Source of the DNA: a virus
Taxonomy: Duplodnaviria > Caudoviricetes
Length of the DNA: 64,000 bases
Virus record (IMG/VR): IMGVR_UViG_3300010346_001536
Reading direction: 5' to 3' (one strand)
The notes below the pieces were generated by a model. The model was not told where the DNA came from and searched no databases. It saw only the letters and a program-made list of their open reading frames with translations. This document shows, piece after piece, positions 2,792-40,955 of the stretch (positions are counted from its first letter, which is position 1; each line of letters begins with the position of its first letter). The translations under genes and the position numbers were made by a program.

Positions 2792-3070
2792 ATGCTCAAT
2801 ATGAATAAGCCTAATGTAAAACATATACCAATGGAACAAAAAAAAGCAATACTTACCGAAACGGTTGAAGTTTTTGGACAACAAGAGTGGTTTAGAGATG
2901 CAACAGTATATGATGCTCACCCAAATACCGGCGAACCAACTCTCGAGTTTAAAGTAAATTATGTTCCTATTTTAGGAATTATCCGCAAAACTATTATAGA
3001 TTTTGCAATAAAACATAATTTGGTTGAACGTTTTGTTATTATTGATAAAGATGGACGCCCTGTAGAGTAA
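2792..3070 (+). CDS. hypothetical protein (start may be 2801)
   Basis: ORF right after TTGACT-N16-TAAAAT promoter at 2764-2791. Confidence 0.7.
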   Translation: MLNMNKPNVKHIPMEQKKAILTETVEVFGQQEWFRDATVYDAHPNTGEPTLEFKVNYVPILGIIRKTIIDFAIKHNLVERFVIIDKDGRPVE

Positions 3071-3122
3071 TAATATTTGTAAAGAATTGTTACTTTAAAT
3101 AACATGGGAATACGGGTAGTTT

Positions 3123-4220
3123 ATGAGTAATAAATTGATTCCATCAATTTTAACTATTATTCCTAAGATTCCGCTTAAAGGGGTATATTATATTGGCCAG
3201 TATGGAACAAGTGGATATGCAAATGCTGCCCGGGGGTATTTATATCATTATTTTATTAATAATATTCCTATTACATGGGACCCCCTTTATTTTGATAATT
3301 CTAAACTAAGTGATGATAATCCATACGATATAGTTGTTCAATCATTAATAAATAAATCAATTCCTCTACATGATGTTGTTATTATACATTCTACCCCCGA
3401 CTTATGGCCAAAATTTTGGGAAGAAAAACTTGAAATTTTAAAGGGAAAAGTTATTAATGGTTATTGTACTTGGGAAACAAATCGTCTTCCTAAAGAATGG
3501 GTTAAATATATGAATGAATGTGTTAATGAAGTATGGTGCCCGTCTTCTTATAATTTAAATTCATTCCGAGAATCGGGAGTAAATAATACTATACGAGTAG
3601 TACCGCATATTTTTCTTCCTCATCCTCTCCCTGACCCGATGAATGTTAAACTAGTTGATATGCGGACCGGAAATCGATTAGAAAAAAATGGATACTATAC
3701 GTTTTATACGATAGGAGAGTTTAATATACGTAAAGGAATTGAGGATACAATACGGGCTTTTTGTGAAGGATTTAAACCTACCGACCCAGTACGGCTTATA
3801 CTTAAAGTTCATTATCGTAATTATTCGGATGAAAATAAGAAAAGATGTGAAGATATGATTAAGGAAGAACTTAAAAAATATCCTTCTTATCCTCCTATTA
3901 TTTGTTTATTAGAACCGATGACTTCAACTGAGATTCTTGCCCTCCATTCAATAGGCGACTGTTACGTGTCGCTTACAAAGGCCGAGGGGTTTGGGCTTAC
4001 TATATTCGATGCCTTTAACTATGGGAAAAACATTATTGCTACGGGCTATGGTGGGCACATTGATTTTTTGGGAGATTCGTATCCCGGCCTTGTTCACTAT
4101 AAAATAGGGCCAGTGGTAGGAATGTCAACTTTTTCTTCGAACTATACTGAGGAACAGTTGTGGGCCTATCCATGTCTTGACCATGCAATTAACCTAATGA
4201 AAAAACAAGCTAACTTATGA
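3123..4220 (+). CDS. GT-B (GT4-like) glycosyltransferase
   Basis: SGY..AAR start, TWET, RKG, EGFGLTIFDA, IATGYGGHIDF. Confidence 0.9.
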   Translation: MSNKLIPSILTIIPKIPLKGVYYIGQYGTSGYANAARGYLYHYFINNIPITWDPLYFDNSKLSDDNPYDIVVQSLINKSIPLHDVVIIHSTPDLWPKFWEEKLEILKGKVINGYCTWETNRLPKEWVKYMNECVNEVWCPSSYNLNSFRESGVNNTIRVVPHIFLPHPLPDPMNVKLVDMRTGNRLEKNGYYTFYTIGEFNIRKGIEDTIRAFCEGFKPTDPVRLILKVHYRNYSDENKKRCEDMIKEELKKYPSYPPIICLLEPMTSTEILALHSIGDCYVSLTKAEGFGLTIFDAFNYGKNIIATGYGGHIDFLGDSYPGLVHYKIGPVVGMSTFSSNYTEEQLWAYPCLDHAINLMKKQANL

Positions 4221-7491: not shown

Positions 7492-8213
7492 TGTTTACCA
7501 AATTCACAATCTATGGGGAAAGGTGTTCTGGCACTAACTTTTTACGCAAGGTTATTGTTGATAATTTTAACCTTGAACTAACACATCTTCCTAATGTAGA
7601 TTATGCGTGGAAACACTTTTTCGGACATGAGAAAAATCAAGCGGCCATTCAGAGTTCAACAGACGTAGTGATTTTATCAATAGTTAGAAATCCGATTGAC
7701 TATTTCGTATCTTTTTTCAAGTCGCCCCACCATCAGTCAGCGGAAAGAATTGTGGACTTTGAAACCTTTCTGACTTCGGAATTCTACTCTATAAATAAAG
7801 AAGGAGAACTTCTTACGGATAGGTATTTTGAGCAGAATTGTCGAAGGTATAAGAACATCTTCGAGATGCGTGCTGTAAAGAATCGATTTCTTGCACTTAC
7901 TATTCCAAAACTTACTGCAAATTGTTATTTAGTGCAATATGAAAGATTGAAGAATGATTCGGAAGCGGTGCTCGTTGAAATTTCAGCTAAGTTTAGGCTT
8001 ACTCCCAAGCAGCAACCATTTATTATAGAAAGACGAAGGGTTGCTCCTCGAGGGACAAGTTGGGATGTATTTGATATTGTGGATTCTCCTATAGGCGAGA
8101 ACTACGTAGTGGAATCTCCGAAATGCAAGGAAATCATCCTTTCCAATTTGGATTTTTCGGCCGAACGAATTGTTGGATACATCCGCGAATCTATTGTAAG
8201 CCGTCTAATATGA
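7491..8213 (+). CDS. sulfotransferase-like protein
   Basis: IYGERCSGTNFL (5'-PSB-like), WKH, IVRNPIDYFVS (3'-PB-like), VQYERL. Confidence 0.7.
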   Translation: MFTKFTIYGERCSGTNFLRKVIVDNFNLELTHLPNVDYAWKHFFGHEKNQAAIQSSTDVVILSIVRNPIDYFVSFFKSPHHQSAERIVDFETFLTSEFYSINKEGELLTDRYFEQNCRRYKNIFEMRAVKNRFLALTIPKLTANCYLVQYERLKNDSEAVLVEISAKFRLTPKQQPFIIERRRVAPRGTSWDVFDIVDSPIGENYVVESPKCKEIILSNLDFSAERIVGYIRESIVSRLI

Positions 8214-9325
8214 GTGATAAAATTCAAAAAGTATATGAATTGGTTCGAGATTATGTAAATAAATCTGAATATTGCGGGAGGGTATTTATTTTTGGAGGAT
8301 ATATTAGAGACCGCATTATTGGCATTATACCTAATGATATAGATGCTATCTTAGTTGGAGATACTGAAGATGCTATGAAATTAGCAATGAAATTGGTATC
8401 GGAAACTAAAGATATGGAAACTAGAAATCTTCCCGTCAAAATTAATAATGCCATTCGTTTTTATATTAATGATGTAAGAATTGATATTACTTCTCTTCCG
8501 CCGATAGAAGGGGGAACACCCCGGGATGTTATGTGCCACGCGGCAATTTATCACCGCGATTTTGCTATCAACGGGATGTGTTTGAATTTAGAAAATGAAG
8601 AAGTTTTTGATGGGTCTGGGAGCTCTATAAAAGCCATTTTTCAAAGAAGTTTAGTAACTGCTAGAGATGATTATGATTCAATTTTTTATAATCATCCTGC
8701 TCGATTATATCGTATGTTTAGATTACAATCTAAACTTAATTTGACTATTCCGGAATCTCAAATTGAATATGCAAGATATAAGTGGTGGTTAAGTAATTTT
8801 GTCGAACGAGATAGAATTAAAATAGAATTTGACCAAATTAAACAGGGGCCAAATGCAAAAAAATTTTTAGAATTATTAAAATATGCTAAATTAGACCCAA
8901 CCGATTTATCAAGGGGCGATGTATTTATTCAAGATGGGTGGCATGAGTGTGAGCCGGGACAAGAACCAAAACGATATCGAGAAGGACTTCATACTCGATG
9001 GACCAGTCCAAAAGCAAATCTTTTAATATCCCCATCAGTAGATGCAATCGAATTAATATATTTTAAATCGGAACATGCTAAATCTGATATATTGTATTAT
9101 ACAATAAATGATAAAGAGGACAAAATTCCGCTTGGACCTACATCTGTTATCATTCCCACCGCTGGAGGGGGTCGTTTAACTATACGTACAAATACTTTTA
9201 GACCTTCAGACGTATTTGAATCTGACGATACTCGAGAATTAGGACTTTATGTATCTAAAATTAATATATTTAAATTGGGAATTAAAACTGAAATTTTAAT
9301 AGATTACATTCCATATCATTTATGA
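8210..9325 (+). CDS. CCA-adding/poly(A) polymerase-family nucleotidyltransferase fused to a C-terminal beta-sandwich ('SDxRxLG') domain
   Basis: GGYIRD..DID and RDFAIN motifs; C-terminal GWH.E..RWT..DTRELG; start at ATG 8210. Confidence 0.8.
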   Translation: MSDKIQKVYELVRDYVNKSEYCGRVFIFGGYIRDRIIGIIPNDIDAILVGDTEDAMKLAMKLVSETKDMETRNLPVKINNAIRFYINDVRIDITSLPPIEGGTPRDVMCHAAIYHRDFAINGMCLNLENEEVFDGSGSSIKAIFQRSLVTARDDYDSIFYNHPARLYRMFRLQSKLNLTIPESQIEYARYKWWLSNFVERDRIKIEFDQIKQGPNAKKFLELLKYAKLDPTDLSRGDVFIQDGWHECEPGQEPKRYREGLHTRWTSPKANLLISPSVDAIELIYFKSEHAKSDILYYTINDKEDKIPLGPTSVIIPTAGGGRLTIRTNTFRPSDVFESDDTRELGLYVSKINIFKLGIKTEILIDYIPYHL

Positions 9326-26150: not shown

Positions 26151-27002
26151 TTATAAGTCTTTATAACTTCCTATTTTTAATTCTTTTCCATCCCATAAGG
26201 CCCAATGAATATCATAAAGTACATCAAGACAAATATTATGAGATAATTTCATGTTATTTAAATCAGCAAGGGATGGGTTATATGTCTCAATAGGACGATA
26301 TACTATCTCGCCCCCCCTGTGAGAGGGGGGTTTCTTTAATATACACCAATGGGGGGGCAACGACTGGGGGGTGTGCCCCACGATTTGATTAATCCCCTGG
26401 AAGGGCTTAAATTCTCTTACAAAATCGCACCATGTTATGCCGCCCACTCGATGTATCCCACCCCGGCTATAACCAGCACTAAAAACCCATGAACTTTTAT
26501 TATTGAATATATCTTGAAATCCTTTATAAATCTCGTCGTTAAGATATTCTGTTAGTTTGACAATAAATTCAGAGCGTCCTTTTTTCCAACATTTTTTAAT
26601 ATTATCAGGTAAATTTAAAGTATGAAGACCGCCATGTGATATTAACCACTGGTTATCAAGAAAATGAAACCATTTTAATTTGTTCCATAATTTGGAATCG
26701 ATGTTATCACGAATAATATAATATTTCCATTGTTCATATCCGCTACATCGAAATTTAGAATAAGAATAGGCATAATGTTGGTCGTGATTTCCAAATAAAT
26801 GAATGCGATTGGGTTTAGAAAGAGAAGATTTTAGCCAATCACAAGTATTTTTGACTTGTCCAGGAGTATCATTAAAATCATCAAAATAATCACCGAGGAA
26901 AATTATTTGGTCTGATTTCACCGACTTAATAATTTCTTCGGCTTGTTTCCATTTATGATGTAAATCCGGAATGATTAAAGTTGTTGGATTTTTATTTTTC
27001 AT
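26151..27002 (-). CDS. calcineurin-like metallophosphoesterase
   Basis: DLH, GDYFD, GNHD, SHGG, GHT. Confidence 0.9.
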   Translation of the reverse strand: MKNKNPTTLIIPDLHHKWKQAEEIIKSVKSDQIIFLGDYFDDFNDTPGQVKNTCDWLKSSLSKPNRIHLFGNHDQHYAYSYSKFRCSGYEQWKYYIIRDNIDSKLWNKLKWFHFLDNQWLISHGGLHTLNLPDNIKKCWKKGRSEFIVKLTEYLNDEIYKGFQDIFNNKSSWVFSAGYSRGGIHRVGGITWCDFVREFKPFQGINQIVGHTPQSLPPHWCILKKPPSHRGGEIVYRPIETYNPSLADLNNMKLSHNICLDVLYDIHWALWDGKELKIGSYKDL

Positions 27003-27074
27003 AAATATAATCAAATTATTTTTGAAAAATATTAAGTTAAAATAACAATTGTTAATTAAACATTTAGTATTTTA

Positions 27075-27449
27075 TTACGAATTAAAGGGATTTATAATTA
27101 ACGATTTATCTTTTCTTTCCCATCCTGCGGCATTCATCTCTTCTTCGGAAACGACATTGATATTTTCATGGATGGTCATAATCATTATTGTAACATTTTT
27201 TTCTCTTAGCTTAGCGGCGTGTGAGGAAAAAAGTTTGGAAAAAGTAGGCATTATTGCCATTTTTTGAAGTGGATTTTCTACATCAATATTTATGATAAGT
27301 ACTGAATTAGGCTTAATGTCATCTATGTTGACCGTAACTGCTTTAACTGTTTCTGGTGGCAAGGTTACTTCATTTGGACGGGTTTTATCTTGAGAAATTA
27401 TTTTTTCTCCTTTATCAGAAGACATTGGTTGGGATTGTTGATTTTGCAT
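27075..27449 (-). CDS. hypothetical protein
   Basis: Start placed at MQNQQ (27449). Confidence 0.65.
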   Translation of the reverse strand: MQNQQSQPMSSDKGEKIISQDKTRPNEVTLPPETVKAVTVNIDDIKPNSVLIINIDVENPLQKMAIMPTFSKLFSSHAAKLREKNVTIMIMTIHENINVVSEEEMNAAGWERKDKSLIINPFNS

Positions 27450-27612
27450 AATTATTTTCCTTTGACTTTGAACGAGTATATTTAGAGTATTTTTTATATT
27501 TACGATTAGTATGCCAATCAATCGTATCAAAATTTTTGAACCACTTTTTGTAGTTATATCCTATAACGGGTCTCATGCCCTTGCCGGCATTTCTAAATTC
27601 TTTTTTAGCCAT
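27415..27612 (-). CDS. small basic phage protein (GKG.RP...Y..NFD.I.W type)
   Basis: MAKKEFRNAGKGMRPV..NFDTIDW. Confidence 0.55.
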   Translation of the reverse strand: MAKKEFRNAGKGMRPVIGYNYKKWFKNFDTIDWHTNRKYKKYSKYTRSKSKENNYAKSTIPTNVF

Positions 27613-27925
27613 AAATTCGTAGAGAAGCAGATTTATACAAAGATTGTATTTGTTCTCGAAGAAATCCAACTTTAGTTTCAATTTCACATATTTGAGAATA
27701 TATCTTTAATTTCTTAAAAAATCCCTTGGTAGTTTCTAAAGATTTTCTAAGTTTTTTAATTTCAGTTACTTTTTCATAAAATTCATCTGTCAATTGATAA
27801 ATTCGTTCAAAAATGGGTCCGCATACCCGTTTTCTTTCATTAACAACAGCATTTACAAATTCTCGCGGGTCTGTTATATGTATGGGAATATTGTCAAAGT
27901 TAAATTCTGGTATATGGTCTTTCAT
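27605..27925 (-). CDS. hypothetical coiled-coil protein
   Basis: Overlaps both neighbours in the operon. Confidence 0.65.
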   Translation of the reverse strand: MKDHIPEFNFDNIPIHITDPREFVNAVVNERKRVCGPIFERIYQLTDEFYEKVTEIKKLRKSLETTKGFFKKLKIYSQICEIETKVGFLREQIQSLYKSASLRIYG

Positions 27926-28398
27926 GATAATTTACTTATAAAATCAACTTCATCAAACTCTGGGATTTCGGGACGTTCATAGCGGCTCAACATATTATCA
28001 ATGACTTCTGATGGTACATTGCGGCCTCCTTCTGCTCCCCGCTTGGCATTTCTGGCCAAAAGGGTAAGTCTGTCGCATTCAAAAACCTTAGCCATCACTT
28101 TGGCCCCCCTTTCCCTAGCGATTTTGATAAACGCGCCGCGTGCTTTACGATACATGTTAGTTGCGTCTAAGATTGCGTTTTTTCCGCTATCTAACGCTTT
28201 CTTTACTTGAAACTTGGCCAATTTGAAAGCCGGTCCCGATACAGATTGGTCATGGGACCCAGCACCCAAAAAACGGCGGTTATCATCAGGACATACACGT
28301 ACAATGTTTGGGTCATTTTTTGCTAGGTTTTTGGAAAACGTACTTTTTCCAGACCCAGGTGCGCCCACACAAATCCACAAAATTTTATTAGATTTCAT
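27922..28398 (-). CDS. P-loop polynucleotide kinase-like protein (AAA_33)
   Basis: GAPGSGKST, DDNR, ILDATN..R, RN..R...RNVP..VI..M; promoter at 28438-28410. Confidence 0.85.
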   Translation of the reverse strand: MKSNKILWICVGAPGSGKSTFSKNLAKNDPNIVRVCPDDNRRFLGAGSHDQSVSGPAFKLAKFQVKKALDSGKNAILDATNMYRKARGAFIKIARERGAKVMAKVFECDRLTLLARNAKRGAEGGRNVPSEVIDNMLSRYERPEIPEFDEVDFISKLS

Positions 28399-28517
28399 CT
28401 ATCACTTGTAATATACAACATCTCACTAGAATTGTCAAATGGTTTCTGGCACAAAAATTATGTTGAACAAAATCAGTTTTTTCATATTTTTAATAATTAT
28501 ATTGTTTATTTTGTAAT

Positions 28518-28922
28518 TTATTGTTTAGATATTTCTTGTTGAGCATTTTCTAAAACTAGAGAAATATTTTTTCTTCCTATTAAGTTCAGAGTGTGAATAT
28601 AATATTTGGGTATATCTATTTTTTTAGATATACAATATTCAGCTAGAAATTTGGCCGCTTCATATCCACTTTTCTCTTTAAAATTATGATATCGAATTTT
28701 TCCATAACTAATCATTTTTATATCATGAGCACATTTATGCTCTTCGTAGTGTTCTGGAGCAAGGTCATGGTCAAAAGACACTGTATCCGGAACCCCCCGC
28801 GATTCAATTATTTTTACAAATTGTTTATAAGTACGTGCAATTTCCCATTTCATAGGAGGAGCACCAGTCCATTTTACATCTTCTGGTAGTCTTGCATCAT
28901 CTAAAAATAAATTATATGACAT
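28518..28922 (-). CDS. cyclic-phosphate-processing receiver-like domain protein
   Basis: LFLDD.R.P, W..AR.Y..F, SFDHDL, SGYE.AKFL, IHT.N..G..NI. Confidence 0.75.
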   Translation of the reverse strand: MSYNLFLDDARLPEDVKWTGAPPMKWEIARTYKQFVKIIESRGVPDTVSFDHDLAPEHYEEHKCAHDIKMISYGKIRYHNFKEKSGYEAAKFLAEYCISKKIDIPKYYIHTLNLIGRKNISLVLENAQQEISKQ

Positions 28923-29664
28923 TGTTGATTTTTTGTTTTTTACGTTGATTTTTAAATAGAGGATTAATTACTTTTCCAGACCATGCTTTTTTAAGTACAG
29001 TACTTGTAAAACTTTCAAATGGACGAATAACAATACCTTCGGCCGGACATCCATTAGGATATTTTTGTTCGCTGGCCAATTTTACTATTCCATCAATATC
29101 ATATCCAAAAGCAGTACCTTCTGTAATGACAGTAACCATTATTAAATTATATTTTTTACAAAATTCTGATAAACGTTTGAAATTTGCATATGTACGACTT
29201 TTAATATCAAATAAATTAAATACATGCAATTCCATTTCTGTTAAACCAAGGGGATTTTTTTGAATGCCCGGCCCACAGATTACGCCTTGAATAGCCCAAG
29301 ATTCATTTTTAAATTCTGTTTGAAGGGCATTTTTAATATCATATTTTTTAGCCATTCGCCAGAAACCATTAGTATTGCTTTCCTTTAAATCCACATGTCG
29401 ACTACAAACGCCAAAATCGCCTCCATTAATATAAAACGTCCCGGAGCACCCGCTGTCTTTACGTGTTATGTAATAAGGAAGACCCCATAATTCTTCTAAA
29501 GCAGAAGGATATGTTCGTAAATTGTCCTCTTCTGTTACAATAAGAAAATTAGGAAATATGCCTTTTGATTGACCTGCTAATTCAGCAGGAATAGGAGTTT
29601 CATATTTTGAAATATTTAAAAATGAAGTAACATCAGTTCCTTCGGTTAAAATTAATTCTTTCAT
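28912..29664 (-). CDS. RNA ligase (DRB0094/Rnl5-like), catalytic part
   Basis: EGTDVT..L.I.KYE, TRKDSG (motif I variant), VCSR, QGV..GPGIQKN, EGIV, KVIN. Confidence 0.8.
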   Translation of the reverse strand: MKELILTEGTDVTSFLNISKYETPIPAELAGQSKGIFPNFLIVTEEDNLRTYPSALEELWGLPYYITRKDSGCSGTFYINGGDFGVCSRHVDLKESNTNGFWRMAKKYDIKNALQTEFKNESWAIQGVICGPGIQKNPLGLTEMELHVFNLFDIKSRTYANFKRLSEFCKKYNLIMVTVITEGTAFGYDIDGIVKLASEQKYPNGCPAEGIVIRPFESFTSTVLKKAWSGKVINPLFKNQRKKQKINNVI

Positions 29665-29678
29665 ATTAAAATAAAGGT

Positions 29679-30014
29679 TTAATTATAAACATAGATTAAC
29701 TGTCCATTTATTTCATTTATTTTTCCCCCGTGTATTTTTTCTAAAATAGATAGAGGGCAACAAACCCCGGCCGATTCGGCTCCTTTAAATTGAAAAGGAT
29801 TAATTTTAAATTTTTTATTTCTTAGAAATTCAAATTCTGGATGTTCAGGGACAATACTATCTGTAGTAATATAAATTACCAAATCTCCAATTTTAAATTC
29901 TCCCTTTTTAACTATTACTTGCCATCCGAGAATTTTAATAAGTTCAAAAGAATCAGCATTATTGTGCGGTTGTACATCCAACACTCGCTGAATTGTCGCT
30001 AAATTTTTGTTCAT
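29679..30014 (-). CDS. RNA ligase (DRB0094-like) N-terminal OB/tRNA-binding part
   Basis: LATIQ.V..V.PH.NAD..E...I.GWQVIVKKGEF..GDLVIY...DS..P..PEFEFL. Confidence 0.85.
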   Translation of the reverse strand: MNKNLATIQRVLDVQPHNNADSFELIKILGWQVIVKKGEFKIGDLVIYITTDSIVPEHPEFEFLRNKKFKINPFQFKGAESAGVCCPLSILEKIHGGKINEINGQLIYVYN

Positions 30015-32973: not shown

Positions 32974-34146
32974 ATGAATATACCGCCAATTTATCTTATT
33001 GAACCTTATAATGCTTACGCTCCCAAGGGGCGTAAAAAGCATTGGATGGAAGAAGTTGAAGAACAAGCTCTTTTAGAAAAGATTGTTTCCGAACAAATCG
33101 CGCTTCAGGAAGCAGAAGCCAAACGAACTTCTAATACACTCCCCCCACAATCGCCCAATTCGGCTATGCAAACTGTTGTAGGCAGTTCGGCGGGAGCGGG
33201 AGCATCGGGAGGGATGGGCTCTGGAGCCGGAGCAGGGGGAACGCCGGCGTGGGATTTTTTTAATCCTACCGGCGATGTGGTTGCGTTTGATATAAGTCCT
33301 TCATCGGGTCCAGCACCTCTTACTGTAACTTTTACTAATCGTACTAGCACTCCTCAATGGGATGATTATAATTGGGAATTTATATTGGATGGGAAAACAA
33401 TAAAGAGTACTGAAGTAAATCCCATTGTAACTTTCCATACTGGTAGTGATGACCCTTCATATATTACTGCTTCATTACAAGTAACTAATTCATTTACGGG
33501 CGTTCCTGGTACTCGTAGTCTTAATGTCTATATTCCTGTTTCAGTTCCGGTAGTAAATTCTAAATTTACATATGTAAAATCTTCTAATATAGCTCCGCTT
33601 ACAGTAGAATTTACAAATATTTCAAATACTAATAATGGACAGCCGCTGACTTATAGGTGGGAATTTGAATATAATAATGGAACTGAAATATCCACTTCAA
33701 TAAGTACACTTAGAACGCCATCCGCCCAGATTGTAGATACTGGAAGTTATACGGCTTCATTACAAGTTACTGGGTCTTATGGTATTGCTTCTCTTTATAC
33801 TCAAAGCTTTGTTGCTTTGCCGCCAACTCTTGTTGCATCTTTTACTACTCAATCTTTTGGTAATGGGGGTGTAGAAGATTCTTATGAAGAGCCAGTAAGC
33901 ATGTCATATACTAGTACCACGACATATGATGGACATGGTACATTAACATATAAGTGGAATTTTGGTTCGGCAAGTTTCTGGACAACAGAATTTGATGAAG
34001 TACCTGGGACCGAAACAACCGTTGGACCACATTTCCGAGCTGATTATGTAGAGGCAGAAGGTGGATATACGGCTTCACTAGAAGTTACTGAGAGTAATTA
34101 TGATATTACTTCACTTTATACTCAAAGCTTCTACGTTAGTTCGTAA
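32974..34146 (+). CDS. PKD-domain protein, probable virion/tail component
   Basis: APLTVTFTN.S, Y.WEF and YTASLQVT repeated three times; TATTTATA at 32957-32964. Confidence 0.8.
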   Translation: MNIPPIYLIEPYNAYAPKGRKKHWMEEVEEQALLEKIVSEQIALQEAEAKRTSNTLPPQSPNSAMQTVVGSSAGAGASGGMGSGAGAGGTPAWDFFNPTGDVVAFDISPSSGPAPLTVTFTNRTSTPQWDDYNWEFILDGKTIKSTEVNPIVTFHTGSDDPSYITASLQVTNSFTGVPGTRSLNVYIPVSVPVVNSKFTYVKSSNIAPLTVEFTNISNTNNGQPLTYRWEFEYNNGTEISTSISTLRTPSAQIVDTGSYTASLQVTGSYGIASLYTQSFVALPPTLVASFTTQSFGNGGVEDSYEEPVSMSYTSTTTYDGHGTLTYKWNFGSASFWTTEFDEVPGTETTVGPHFRADYVEAEGGYTASLEVTESNYDITSLYTQSFYVSS

Positions 34147-34544
34147 TTAAAATCCGTATCAAACGGCATATCTCTAGGAAGACTTTCCTTTGTGTAATTA
34201 TCTAAAGTTGATAATTTGTTTTTAATTAAATTACTTTCGGCTGTCCACCATGCTTTAATTTCTTTTCGAATTTTTCGGTGTAATTTAGTAAATTTCAATC
34301 CTTGAAAAATCACTGTTGATATATCATCAAAGTATTCGGCCGGTAACGTAATATCTACTATAAAATTGTCCATAGTTAATAATCCATCTTCAATCAAATT
34401 ACTTTCGGCTGTCCACCATGCTTTAATTTCTTTTTGATTTTTTCGAAGTAAATTAGAATGTTTCAATCCTTGAAAAATTACTGTTGATAAATCGCTAAAA
34501 AGCTCGGCGGGTAAAGTAACAAGCATATCAGTTTTATTTATCAT
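34131..34544 (-). CDS. hypothetical protein made of an internally duplicated 56-aa unit
   Basis: TLPAE.F.D.STVIFQGLK...KEIKAWWTAESNLI twice; 168-bp period (34228/34396). Confidence 0.75.
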   Translation of the reverse strand: MINKTDMLVTLPAELFSDLSTVIFQGLKHSNLLRKNQKEIKAWWTAESNLIEDGLLTMDNFIVDITLPAEYFDDISTVIFQGLKFTKLHRKIRKEIKAWWTAESNLIKNKLSTLDNYTKESLPRDMPFDTDFNYELT

Positions 34545-35344: not shown

Positions 35345-35446
35345 TTTATTTTAAACTATAAGAATAATAACATTTGATTTATAAAGATGTCAAGAAAATA
35401 TAAGGGGAATAAGAAGAAGTGTATTTGGGGGGGAGTATAAAATATA

Positions 35447-35646
35447 AGAACAGTTTGATTCAATTACTCTTGGATTTTATATCGACTATTAAGAATTTTA
35501 ATGTTTTATTTTTAAGGCTTATTGTTTGAGCTCTTGAGAGTTAAAACTTAACCCCGTTAAGGGGATTCCTTAACTTTACATGAGTATCTCGCAAAGCGAA
35601 AAAAATATAGTCGAAATTACCTACCATCATATCCTCAAACTGTTCT
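35447..35646 (-). ncRNA. putative structured RNA downstream of the DIP1984-like gene pair
   Basis: 12-bp closing stem (35447-58/35635-46), nested 8-bp stem (35482-89/35607-14), small hairpins, ~7-nt periodic YAA array. Confidence 0.7.
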
Positions 35647-35659
35647 ATAAATTGTTTAT

Positions 35660-36106
35660 TTAATCCGAAATTTCTGTTGTAGCATTATAAATATCTACTT
35701 CATCTTGCATTTCATTGATTTTTCGTTGTAAATATTCAATATGTTCGTCACAGCGAGCTTGATTCAAAAAACTGTTCCATTTATAAACTAATTTTTCTTG
35801 GTCTCTACCAACTAAAATAATTTCTTCGCCTTCTCGTATATTTAAACCTTTGAGAAAGGTAATGAGAGTTTTGTATTCGGCCATTCGTTCGAGGGCAGGA
35901 TAAATATTTATGTTGGCCTTAGCAATTTTACCCTTTAACTTCCACAATTCTTCGGAGAGGCTTTGGATTTTATTCCATACTTCTTGCCGGTCAACGGTTG
36001 ATGTACTATCAGAGCGGCGAGCATTTTCACGCAGCAAAATTTGTTGTTGACGAGAAATTTCTCCGGCCAAACGGCTTTTTTGTTTAAGTGCTTGTGATAA
36101 TTTCAT
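35660..36106 (-). CDS. DIP1984/DUF6847-like coiled-coil protein, copy A
   Basis: MKL.QAL..K.RL start, LK.KI.KAN, C-terminal I..LQ..I..MQDE.D.YNA.TEI. Confidence 0.7.
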   Translation of the reverse strand: MKLSQALKQKSRLAGEISRQQQILLRENARRSDSTSTVDRQEVWNKIQSLSEELWKLKGKIAKANINIYPALERMAEYKTLITFLKGLNIREGEEIILVGRDQEKLVYKWNSFLNQARCDEHIEYLQRKINEMQDEVDIYNATTEISD

Positions 36107-36160
36107 AATTTTAATTTTAGTTTAAGTTTAAATCAAATCTATCATATAGACCGATACATG

Positions 36161-36631
36161 TCAATACTTTTTTTGAGGTTTTTTATGAATCCAAATTTCC
36201 ATAGTGTTATTATAAACATCTATTTCATCTTGCATTTTATTAATTTCATTTTGTAAATTTTCAATGAGTTTATCGCATTTTGAATGATTTATAAAGCAAT
36301 CCCATTTATAAGATAGCTTTTCTTTATTTTTATTTATATAAAAAACCTCTTCATTTTCTCTTTTATTTAATCTTTGAAGAAAAGCAATTAATTTTTTATA
36401 TTCTTCCTTGCGAGCGAGTACGGGGTAAATATTTATATTGGCTTGAGCAATTTTGAATTTTAATTCGTTTAATTCGAGAGGGATACTGTGAATTTTATTC
36501 CATACTTCTATTAAGTACGCTCCAGATGGTTTATCTGACCGCCGAGCATTTTCACGTTGCAAAATTTCTTTCTGCCGGGCGAGTTCATCAGCAAGTCGTT
36601 TCTTTTCTTTAAGAGCTTGAGATAATTTCAT
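36161..36631 (-). CDS. DIP1984/DUF6847-like coiled-coil protein, copy B (tandem paralog)
   Basis: Aligns along its length with 35660..36106; TTGACA at 36675-36670. Confidence 0.7.
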   Translation of the reverse strand: MKLSQALKEKKRLADELARQKEILQRENARRSDKPSGAYLIEVWNKIHSIPLELNELKFKIAQANINIYPVLARKEEYKKLIAFLQRLNKRENEEVFYINKNKEKLSYKWDCFINHSKCDKLIENLQNEINKMQDEIDVYNNTMEIWIHKKPQKKY

Positions 36632-39419: not shown

Positions 39420-40955
39420 ATGAAAAAAGTAAAAAATATACAGGGGAAAACGAAATATGTTCCATCTTCCAATGCTTTCATTCAAGGCATGACTAATGCT
39501 TGTAATGTGGCTTATACCGAAAACGCAGCTATTACTAATAAGTCCACTTTATCTGATACTTTAGATTGGTTTGGGGCTGGGGGAGCGTTGCGTCAGCGAA
39601 ATTCTGAGGAAATCATCAGCCTTTTCTCTCGCGCTTTTGCCGAAGACCAGCTTTTGGCATTGAAAATTCTTTTCTATTTGCGCGATGTACGAGAAGGACA
39701 GGGAGAGCGCAATACATTTCGTATTATTATCAACTGGCTAGCACAACATTATCCAGAAGTAATCCGAAAAAATTTAGAACACATTCCTTTTTATGGCCGA
39801 TTTGATGATTTGTATTCTTTAGTAGGTACTTCGCTAGAAAACGAAATGTTTAAATTTATTGCACAGCAATTAAAAACGGATTTTCGTAATATGAAGAGGG
39901 GAAAATCTGTTTCTTTGTTGGCTAAATGGGCTAAGAGTGAAAATACTTCTTCTGATGAATCAGTCAAACTTGGTCGTAAAACCCGCGAGGCTCTTAAACT
40001 TTCTCCAAAGCGTTATCGAAAGATTCTTTCTTCTCTTAGAAATTATATTAATGTCGTTGAAACAAAGATGTGTTTGGGAAAGTGGGGTGAAATTAATTAT
40101 GAAGGAGTTCCTTCTAAGGCTTCTTTAAATTATCGTAAAGCGTTTGGCCGGCATGACCAAGAACGTTATGCTAGTTATTTAGAATCTGTTAAGAAAGGAG
40201 ATTCTAAAATTAATGCAGATGCTATATTTCCATATGAAATTTTTCGTTCGCTTGTAAAAAATCCAGAATGTAAAATTACGCCGTCGGCACAAGAAATTTT
40301 GCAGGCCGATTTACAGTGGAAATCTATGCCCAATTGGATGGGGAATAATGAACACAAAGGCATTGTTATTGCTGATTGTTCAGGGTCTATGTATACTGGC
40401 ATTCCCAATATTTTTGTGGCGGTATCTCTTGCAATTTACTTTGCCGAACGTAATGTAGGTCCTTTTAAAAATGTTTGGATGACCTTTTCAACCCATCCTT
40501 CATTTCAAAAATTGAAGGGACAAAATCTATATGAAAAATATTTAAATATAGATAGGAACGACTGGGGAGTATCAACCAATCTCCAGTCATCATTTGACCT
40601 TATTTTAAAGACGGCGGTGAAAGCGTCCGTTCCCCCCGAAGATATGCCAGAAGTATTGTATATTATTTCTGATATGGAATTTGATTGGGCGTGTAAAGAC
40701 AATACAAAGACAAATTTCCAAGTAATGAGAGAAAAGTATGAAACCGCCGGATATAAATTGCCGCGTGTAGTGTGGTGGAATGTTGACGCTCGCAATAGCA
40801 ATTACCCAATTCGAGCAGATGATACGGGTACCTGTTTGGTTTCGGGATGCTCACCGAGCATCTTGAAGACCGTAATGAGTTCGAAGATTATGGACCCAAT
40901 CAGTATTATGCTTTCAACTGTAAATATTCCTCGTTATGAGCGTATTGCCGTTTAA
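39420..40955 (+). CDS. DUF2828-family TROVE/Ro60-like protein with C-terminal vWA domain
   Basis: TENAA, FYLRDVREGQGER..F, YGRFDDL, SLLAKW, YRK.LS.LR, VVE.KM, ADCSGSM (MIDAS), STNL, ISDMEFD, VWWNV, VSG.SP. Confidence 0.9.
   Translation: MKKVKNIQGKTKYVPSSNAFIQGMTNACNVAYTENAAITNKSTLSDTLDWFGAGGALRQRNSEEIISLFSRAFAEDQLLALKILFYLRDVREGQGERNTFRIIINWLAQHYPEVIRKNLEHIPFYGRFDDLYSLVGTSLENEMFKFIAQQLKTDFRNMKRGKSVSLLAKWAKSENTSSDESVKLGRKTREALKLSPKRYRKILSSLRNYINVVETKMCLGKWGEINYEGVPSKASLNYRKAFGRHDQERYASYLESVKKGDSKINADAIFPYEIFRSLVKNPECKITPSAQEILQADLQWKSMPNWMGNNEHKGIVIADCSGSMYTGIPNIFVAVSLAIYFAERNVGPFKNVWMTFSTHPSFQKLKGQNLYEKYLNIDRNDWGVSTNLQSSFDLILKTAVKASVPPEDMPEVLYIISDMEFDWACKDNTKTNFQVMREKYETAGYKLPRVVWWNVDARNSNYPIRADDTGTCLVSGCSPSILKTVMSSKIMDPISIMLSTVNIPRYERIAV

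Follow-up and report, generated by a model that had tools for sequence, protein, structure and literature searches.

A DIP1984-like protein gene and a heptad-repeat RNA in a huge phage: probably an undescribed protein-RNA particle that handles broken RNA

Why should the gene of a small helical protein be followed by a 200-nucleotide (nt) RNA that displays nearly the same motif at about every seventh nucleotide? The question is raised by a locus in a 64,000-nt stretch of viral DNA (hereafter the window), which is part of the 138-kb IMG/VR virus record IMGVR_UViG_3300010346_001536 (completeness estimate 39%). Relatives of this locus are found on contigs of 310-370 kb, and the virus of the window is therefore a huge phage. 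The locus comprises two paralogous genes and the heptad-repeat RNA (the element), all on the minus strand. The reading that we favor, with modest confidence, is that paralogue 1 and the element are the phage copy of a widespread and so far undescribed two-part module, in which a self-associating protein reads the heptads and makes with them a particle serving in the response to broken RNA. The features of the locus are as follows.

36161..36631, minus strand: open reading frame (ORF) of paralogue 2, DIP1984/DUF6847-like, 156 amino acids (aa), without an RNA of its own
36136..36164, minus strand: candidate sigma-70-like promoter TTGACA-17-TAGATT before paralogue 1 (consensus scan, 10/12 matches)
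35660..36106, minus strand: ORF of paralogue 1, 148 aa, orthologue of the gene found before the RNA in every relative
35440..35653, minus strand: heptad-repeat RNA, whole covariance-model match (cmsearch, 193.9 bits)
35447-35646, minus strand: helix-closed core of the RNA, 200 nt, beginning 13 nt after the stop codon of paralogue 1
35635..35646, minus strand: 5' arm of closing helix P1, a perfect 12 bp with 35447-35458
35447..35458, minus strand: 3' arm of P1, pairing with 35646-35635
35614-35607 with 35489-35482, minus strand: nested 8-bp stem, present in the window sequence
35589..35599, minus strand: hairpin P2 (TCGC-ttt-GCGA), covarying in relatives
35552..35564, minus strand: hairpin P3 (CCCC-ttaac-GGGG), directly before the array, found in relatives with different sequences
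35489..35551, minus strand: array of 8-9 units n-y-U-Y-A-A-R-n, spaced by 6-8 nt, with a conserved AAAAyUCUU-type box at its end; contains the unique 8-chain of the window

The heptad-repeat RNA and its linkage to the gene

All the sequence features on which a preliminary description of this DNA was based, namely the spacing behind the gene, both stems, the hairpins and the YAA array, are present in the window. The YAA triplets start at positions 35550, 35543, 35536, 35528, 35521, 35514, 35508 and 35500, i.e. at steps of 7, 7, 8, 7, 7, 6 and 8 nt, and a ninth one is located at 35491. Neither strand of the 64 kb contains another chain of eight YAA with steps of 6-8 nt; the runner-up is a chain of five, which occurs three times. 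The 12-bp repeat by itself is at the chance level: 5 perfect inverted repeats of this length with a loop of 100-300 nt are found in the window vs 3.4 expected from shuffles. The RNA as a whole folds with z = -3.6, its stability exceeding that of each of 200 shuffles. The copy in the window has drifted towards UAA, in keeping with a G+C content of 29%, and retains all parts. There is only one copy of the RNA in the 138-kb record.

The flanks of three homologous genes carry the same element with different sequences of the closing helix. A covariance model built from 4 copies recovered the RNA in 19 distinct close loci, 9 of which had been fetched by the DNA pattern of the array alone and not via the protein. 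In the alignment of these 19 sequences 92% of the cells are paired and all 23 pairs demonstrate compensatory double changes, while in the slid control (partner shifted by 1-3 columns) only 29-49% of the cells are paired. The alignment of 37 sequences including distant members (416 columns) gives 92% as well; both alignments were fitted to the model, and these values lean towards the structure. Compensatory changes are found in 10 of the 10 core pairs of P1 (96% of cells paired), in 6 of the 6 pairs of P2 (88-89%) and, in the 19-sequence alignment, in both modeled pairs of P3. The stem covariation anticipated in the 3' flanks of homologues is thus observed for the closing helix and for both hairpins. 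The nested 8-bp stem, which had been proposed along with them, is no better than shuffles in most relatives and finds no support as part of the conserved fold. It is possible that a long-range helix is formed by a purine box (AAAGAG or GAGA) and CUCUUU or UCUC, both being invariant in sequence. G-U pairs appear in relatives on the gene's strand only; therefore the fold is strand-specific and belongs to the transcript. The element is a real, conserved structured RNA.

This RNA has no counterpart in Rfam: there was no match at the gathering threshold on the window, none up to E 5-10 on the element and three relatives, and none on the RNA in 20 distant loci (Y RNA families included). RAGATH-27 gave no match either. 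ARAGORN detected neither tRNA nor tmRNA in the window. tmRNA and RNase P RNA were considered as identities of the element and rejected, and the sequences of the T4 species 1 and 2 RNAs (rnaC, rnaD) share no array or architecture with it. Most metagenome matches to the DNA pattern of the array are chance matches, and so are all 7 extra viral ones.

The array is the most conserved feature of the module, in agreement with the periodicity of about 7 nt noticed initially. The logo of the unit corresponds to n-y-U-Y-A-A-R-n, with a pyrimidine at -2 in 65-67%, U at -1 in 72-83% and a purine at +3 in 80-83% of the units. Steps of 7 nt are the most frequent, at 48 of 89 in the close clade and 97 of 123 among distant relatives, and the runs are nearly perfect in some relatives, e.g. 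L187, L221 and L171. Chains of at least four units are present in 34 of 64 flanks vs 23 of 256 controls. The best-conserved stretch family-wide is formed by the last unit together with the CUCUU-type box, and a GAUAA-type purine motif is located upstream of P3, often as two or three copies about 6 nt apart. The motif YAA(A) is identical in phages and in bacteria of different phyla.

The design of the array resembles the targets of two known oligomeric regulators. TRAP reads 11 G/UAG triplets about 5 nt apart, and HutP reads UAG triplets 7 nt apart. A triplet-centered motif repeated with a fixed short period in single-stranded RNA is common to these targets and to the array, and is the hallmark of an oligomer that reads one motif per subunit. 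The motif (U-YAA-A), the protein fold and the setting are different: the targets of TRAP and HutP are attenuation leaders of metabolic operons, whereas the RNA described here is a closed domain behind the gene of its own protein.

The 148-aa gene precedes the RNA on the same strand in every one of the 18 close loci for which enough upstream DNA is available, and in 12 of these the RNA begins at most 15 nt from the stop codon. A query with an alignment of distant representatives yielded 76 viral loci at 25-42% protein identity. The covariance model gave matches in 29 of 63 such loci; these are individually weak, all lie on the gene's strand, and are mostly less than 30 nt (in a few cases up to ~150 nt) from the gene stop. 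Scoring by either of two crude automatic criteria marks 44 of 64 flanks as positive, and most of the others show the array by eye. Two huge phages with published genomes, LR756511.1 (595 kb) and LR756500.1 (462 kb), have the pair, and so do bacterial genomes. A blastn search of GenBank phages gave no match, nor did a query of IMG/VR with the single protein; alignment-based queries of IMG/VR gave the matches. The adjacency of gene and RNA is kept from 99% down to ~27% protein identity, in phages and in bacteria, so that the view of the two as one module is borne out. The Heptad-RNA / DUF6847-like module stands in no catalogue and is defined here: on the strand of the gene, the RNA directly follows the gene's stop codon or that of an inserted ORF, has a covarying terminal helix, and displays an array of at least four U-Y-A-A-R units at steps of ~7 nt (a chain of eight in the window).

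Several relatives have a canonical intrinsic terminator 3' of the RNA; therefore the RNA is the 3' part of the transcript of the gene. Judging by its sequence, the candidate promoter at 36136..36164 is the likely start of this joint transcript in the window, and a sigma-70-like promoter is found by pattern match directly upstream of most relatives' genes. Between this promoter and the AUG the leader of paralogue 1 (36107-36135, minus strand) reads UUUAAAC UUAAAC UAAAAU UAAAAUU, i.e. four array-like units. Such motifs occur in 13 of 61 leaders vs 39 of 475 controls, a weak enrichment which weakly suggests autoregulation through the leader.

Two further observations concern the transcripts of the close relatives. 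In 13 of 19 of them a Cys-rich ORF of about 60 aa (..CRRH..CYYC..PEERLLAxIFGEGRF) begins about 10 nt past the closing helix, with neither a Shine-Dalgarno sequence nor a promoter between the helix and the ATG (L002 4666-4863 and L005 5777-5965; also L003, L008, L009, L013, L030, L058, L064, L081, L085, L091 and L147); the window has no such ORF. Besides, many genes of close relatives have TTGACn-17-TATAnT promoters, the -10 box of which ends 6-9 nt from the ATG (L002 4858-4896, L003 5111-5146 and L005 5962-5997). This spacing suggests leaderless or nearly leaderless mRNAs.

Taken with the position of the element, these data raise the alternative that it is a cis-acting device of the 3' untranslated region or of the intercistronic gap, which stabilizes or terminates the mRNA, feeds back on translation or loads ribosomes onto the next ORF. 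The RNA always stands directly behind a stop codon and shows no separate promoter; an unstructured CAA-rich tract could be a landing site for ribosomes, the Cys-rich ORF follows the closing helix closely, and four UAAA-type motifs occupy the leader at 36135-36107. We nevertheless consider such a device quite unlikely. The downstream ORF is absent from the window and from 5 other close loci, and distant relatives have a terminator or a tRNA at its place. The leader enrichment is weak, as mentioned above, and a covarying architecture of ~200 nt with eight phased motifs, preserved in bacteria and phages, far exceeds the needs of a terminator or a stabilizer.

The protein family and its predicted self-association

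Paralogues 1 and 2 are 60% identical. Paralogue 1 has 229 homologues at ~65% identity, and a profile search extends the family to 1472 cluster representatives. The suggestion that two paralogues share one RNA holds for the window, where a single RNA accompanies both genes in the whole record, and fails for the family: a second copy of the gene is present in none of the 18 close loci for which upstream sequence is available, and therefore the pair of paralogues is a local duplication.

The AlphaFold2 model of paralogue 1 (predicted local distance difference test score, pLDDT, of 92) consists of three helices, a beta hairpin and a fourth helix. Its top match by Foldseek is 3kdq_A (E 8.7e-4, probability 1.00, template-modeling (TM) score 0.65/0.64), which covers the full length; the next match has E 0.2. 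The protein of Corynebacterium diphtheriae in 3KDQ is thus the sole significant structural match, and the likeness to DIP1984 noticed in the sequence is confirmed at the level of the fold. A profile search of PDB sequences missed 3KDQ, which was found by the fold search only. The members of DIP1984/DUF6847 (NF038048, PF20935), often labeled 'septicolysin', share with the window proteins the size of ~150 aa and the order of helices and hairpin. They differ in that no partner RNA is described for the family; its function is likewise undescribed.

The check by hidden Markov models gave a more distant relationship than strict membership. Against DIP1984_fam (NF038048) the two window proteins reach 18.2 and 15.4 bits vs the curated cut-off of 70, the matches being weak but full-length (E 0.016 for paralogue 2 at 15.4 bits). 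Intermediate relatives reach the same family at E 3e-9, with a best score of 37 bits. The window proteins have no match to Pfam DUF6847 (PF20935) at E up to 0.1, while the distant relatives P0250 and P0260 score 24.7 and 24.0 bits vs the gathering threshold of 27, and the nearest ESM Atlas clusters carry DUF6847. The window proteins are a large, mainly viral sister branch of DIP1984/DUF6847 outside the curated thresholds. PHROGs contains no meaningful family for either paralogue, and a tblastn search of plasmids with a relative close to DIP1984 gave no match.

Self-association of the protein is predicted. The prediction with four copies gives an interface score (ipSAE) of 0.63 vs 0.17 for the best control; among proteins of solved structure, 20 of 30 pairs and 1 of 23 single chains reach this mark. 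The contacts agree between the runs by at least 76%, and the pLDDT of the partner is at least 84. The pass may partly reflect the solved relative 3KDQ. The predicted interface is symmetric and includes N28 and the beta hairpin. Residues K8, K10, Q134, D138 and N141 are invariant family-wide and lie outside this interface, where helix 1 begins and helix 4 ends; D135 belongs to the same conserved patch. Their position in the model makes them a candidate surface for reading the RNA.

Genomic company and the proposed role

Among bacterial copies of the module, linkage with Rtc genes was counted in one phylum, in an even sample of 251 genomes, of which 9 have the gene. In 7 of these 9 RtcR is located divergently upstream and/or RtcB downstream. 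A clear heptad RNA of ~300 nt occupies the gap behind the gene in 4 of 7 examined loci (L251, L255, L256 and L258), and the arrays in L253 and L257 are shorter or diverged. In L229 the order runs as follows: divergent RtcR, sigma-54-type promoter, the gene, the heptad RNA of ~230 nt with a terminator, an ORF of 96 aa, RtcA and RtcB. Operons controlled by RtcR respond to tRNA fragments (PMC7790460). In Salmonella the slot between RtcR and RtcB is occupied by rsr and two Y RNAs, which have been proposed to assist tRNA decay or to inhibit the anticodon nuclease competitively (PMC7790460).

The resemblance to Ro60 (Rsr) with its Y RNAs in rsr-yrlBA-rtcBA extends beyond the position between RtcR and RtcB/RtcA (PMC7790460). 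In both cases a protein is combined with an adjacent structured non-coding RNA with paired ends, and both occur in jumbo phages as well, in the company of RNA ligases and tRNA sets (PMC7824862). The components themselves are different: Ro60 is a TROVE ring, whereas the protein of the module is an unrelated small helical dimer according to the prediction; the RNA of the module has no Y RNA or tRNA-like module by Rfam and has the 7-nt periodic array instead. Moreover, the window contains a separate DUF2828 gene besides the module.

In viruses the module is often surrounded by tRNA genes. They are present within 2.5 kb in 18 of 60 distant viral loci, with at least 5 of them in 10 loci, as a raw count; they are co-oriented with the gene and often abut it. 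Jumbo phages are known to counter host attacks on the translation apparatus with a combination of tRNA sets, RNA ligases, kinases and phosphoesterases, to which Ro-like proteins are sometimes added (PMC7824862). The window itself has the following genes of this kind (Pfam).

26151-30014: cluster of an RNA ligase and its OB domain (in a separate ORF), a cyclic-phosphate-processing receiver domain (cREC), a P-loop kinase and a metallophosphoesterase
28912-29664: RNA ligase
39420-40955: DUF2828+DUF7788 gene
8123-9325: nucleotidyltransferase with a PolyA_pol head

The module is situated between the RNA ligase/cREC/kinase/phosphoesterase cluster (5.4 kb off) and the DUF2828 gene (2.8 kb off). By these domain assignments the phage of the window is rich in genes for RNA-end processing.

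From the conserved pair, its architecture and its genomic company we infer how the units are read and what the particle does. The first part of the module is the small helical protein of the DIP1984/DUF6847 fold, and the second the RNA of ~200 nt, placed on the same transcript directly behind the stop codon and closed by a long end-to-end helix. This RNA displays ~8 U-Y-A-A-A units at 7-nt spacing, with the shorter purine-rich GAUAA-type motif upstream of the array. The protein, if it self-associates as predicted, may read one heptad per subunit or two per dimer and so build a defined protein-RNA particle. In the window paralogue 2 may form mixed dimers on the single RNA. The particle would act on broken RNA, above all on cleaved tRNA, in a role like that of Ro60/Y RNA beside RtcB, and on the phage side it might blunt host defenses that cut tRNA.

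A number of observations weigh against this proposal. That the protein binds the RNA we infer from their co-occurrence only, and thermodynamic folding leaves the array unpaired in part only. In 6 close loci 200-1100 nt are inserted between gene and RNA, i.e. the parts need not be contiguous. The Rtc link was counted in a single phylum, and other bacterial copies have other neighbors: on a 2.46-Mb bacterial contig (L232 3164-5224, minus strand) the pair, with a 16-bp closing helix and four heptads in the RNA, adjoins not rtc genes but a 686-aa protein with an ADP-ribosylglycohydrolase domain and an ArsR-type helix-turn-helix gene. No RtcR or RtcB adjoins the module in the phage of the window, which has only the ATP-type RNA ligase cluster; the repair genes of the window are kilobases away in separate transcription units. 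The tRNA neighborhoods, too, are known from a raw count.

As for the insertions themselves, in L005/L006 (4423-5331) a LAGLIDADG homing-endonuclease gene and a small ORF stand between the protein gene and the RNA, and in L003 an ORF of 91 aa does so. In three insertion loci examined directly the RNA still follows directly after a stop codon.

The unit format Y-U-YAA-R-N is the format of an anticodon loop, and U-CAA-A is complementary to U33-A37 of the loop with the UUG anticodon. It is conceivable, albeit unlikely, that the particle is specifically a tool against anticodon-loop cleavage. The units, which the protein would keep in register, would then serve as a multivalent competitive substrate or inhibitor of tRNA-cutting defense nucleases, or as aligners of broken tRNA halves for RtcB or the phage RNA ligase. 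If so, it would represent a new class of RNA-repair cofactor common to bacteria and huge phages.

In another explanation the RNA is no partner of the neighboring protein but soaks up a host factor as a decoy or sponge, namely an anticodon nuclease or a single-strand RNA binder such as Hfq, Rho, S1 or a KH-domain protein; the protein would be a mere chaperone or unrelated. By logo frequencies the unit fits Y-U-NNN-R-N, and the array resembles known sponge RNAs in being poor in G, rich in A and multivalent. The context of tRNA islands and repair genes is also in line with a decoy, and competitive inhibition of an anticodon nuclease was proposed for YrlA (PMC7790460). On the other hand, the units, unlike anticodon loops, do not sit on stems, and the strict link to one protein family is left unexplained. 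That phages and bacteria of different phyla share one YAA(A) motif is more in line with a reader inherited along with it than with host-specific targets. We regard such a decoy as unlikely.

An analogy with type III toxin-antitoxin systems, in which the repeat RNA would neutralize a toxic protein, had also been drawn. In ToxIN, as here, a protein gene and a repeat RNA adjoin in one transcription unit, and the module is frequent on mobile DNA such as phages. The defining arrangement of type III systems, namely tandem RNA repeats of ~34-45 nt upstream of the gene of a ToxN-like endoribonuclease, is not found: the units are 7 nt and not ~36 nt long, they are located downstream of the gene, and the fold is DIP1984-like and not ToxN-like. 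PADLOC assigns no defense family to either paralogue (stray weak matches are PDC-M09B, E 0.006, and Cas2, E 0.004), and the bacterial copies are the first cistrons of RtcR-controlled repair operons. Such a toxin is therefore very improbable and the least likely of the explanations considered.

The statement that no function of the module is described was borne out by the literature. A full-text search gave nothing on DUF6847 and only unrelated contexts for DIP1984 or 'septicolysin', and no paper describing the gene-RNA pair was found. If the particle proposed above exists, it would provide the first function and a partner RNA for DIP1984/DUF6847, a family of ~1,500 sequence clusters by profile search with a crystal structure and no known role. 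The RNA would be an uncatalogued family of unusual design, a strictly 7-nt phased array within a closed domain. The particle would be the second kind to occupy the Ro60/Y RNA slot of Rtc RNA-repair operons, and bacterial signaling of tRNA damage would be tied to the tRNA islands and repair genes of huge phages. With its small size (150 aa and 200 nt), the pair lends itself to direct tests of binding, stoichiometry and structure.

Neighboring RNAs and minor observations

Other stable RNAs are found in the same islands as the module. The tRNA island of L225 contains a tmRNA (2918-3370), and that of L178 contains GOLLD RNA (3642-4076, 243 bits) and freshwater-1 RNA (1823-1885). GOLLD, which is 0.5 kb from the module in L178, and ROOL are likewise uncharacterized structured RNAs of phage stable-RNA islands. 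They have no sequence or structure match to the heptad-repeat RNA, which is much smaller and has a dedicated protein gene and a periodic array.

A gene of the window at 34131-34544 (minus strand) encodes a protein of 137 aa composed of two internal repeats (..LPAE.F.D.STVIFQGLK...L.RK..KEIKAWWTAESNLI..), with a near-threshold match to DUF2004 (26.6 bits vs 27).

Two tRNAs assigned by ARAGORN in relatives are unusual. One of them (L016 5932-6006) has the anticodon CTA, is labeled Pyl and is a possible TAG suppressor; the other (L216 2179-2274) has a four-base anticodon (agtt). Their anticodons hint at recoding of a stop codon or of the frame in those phages.

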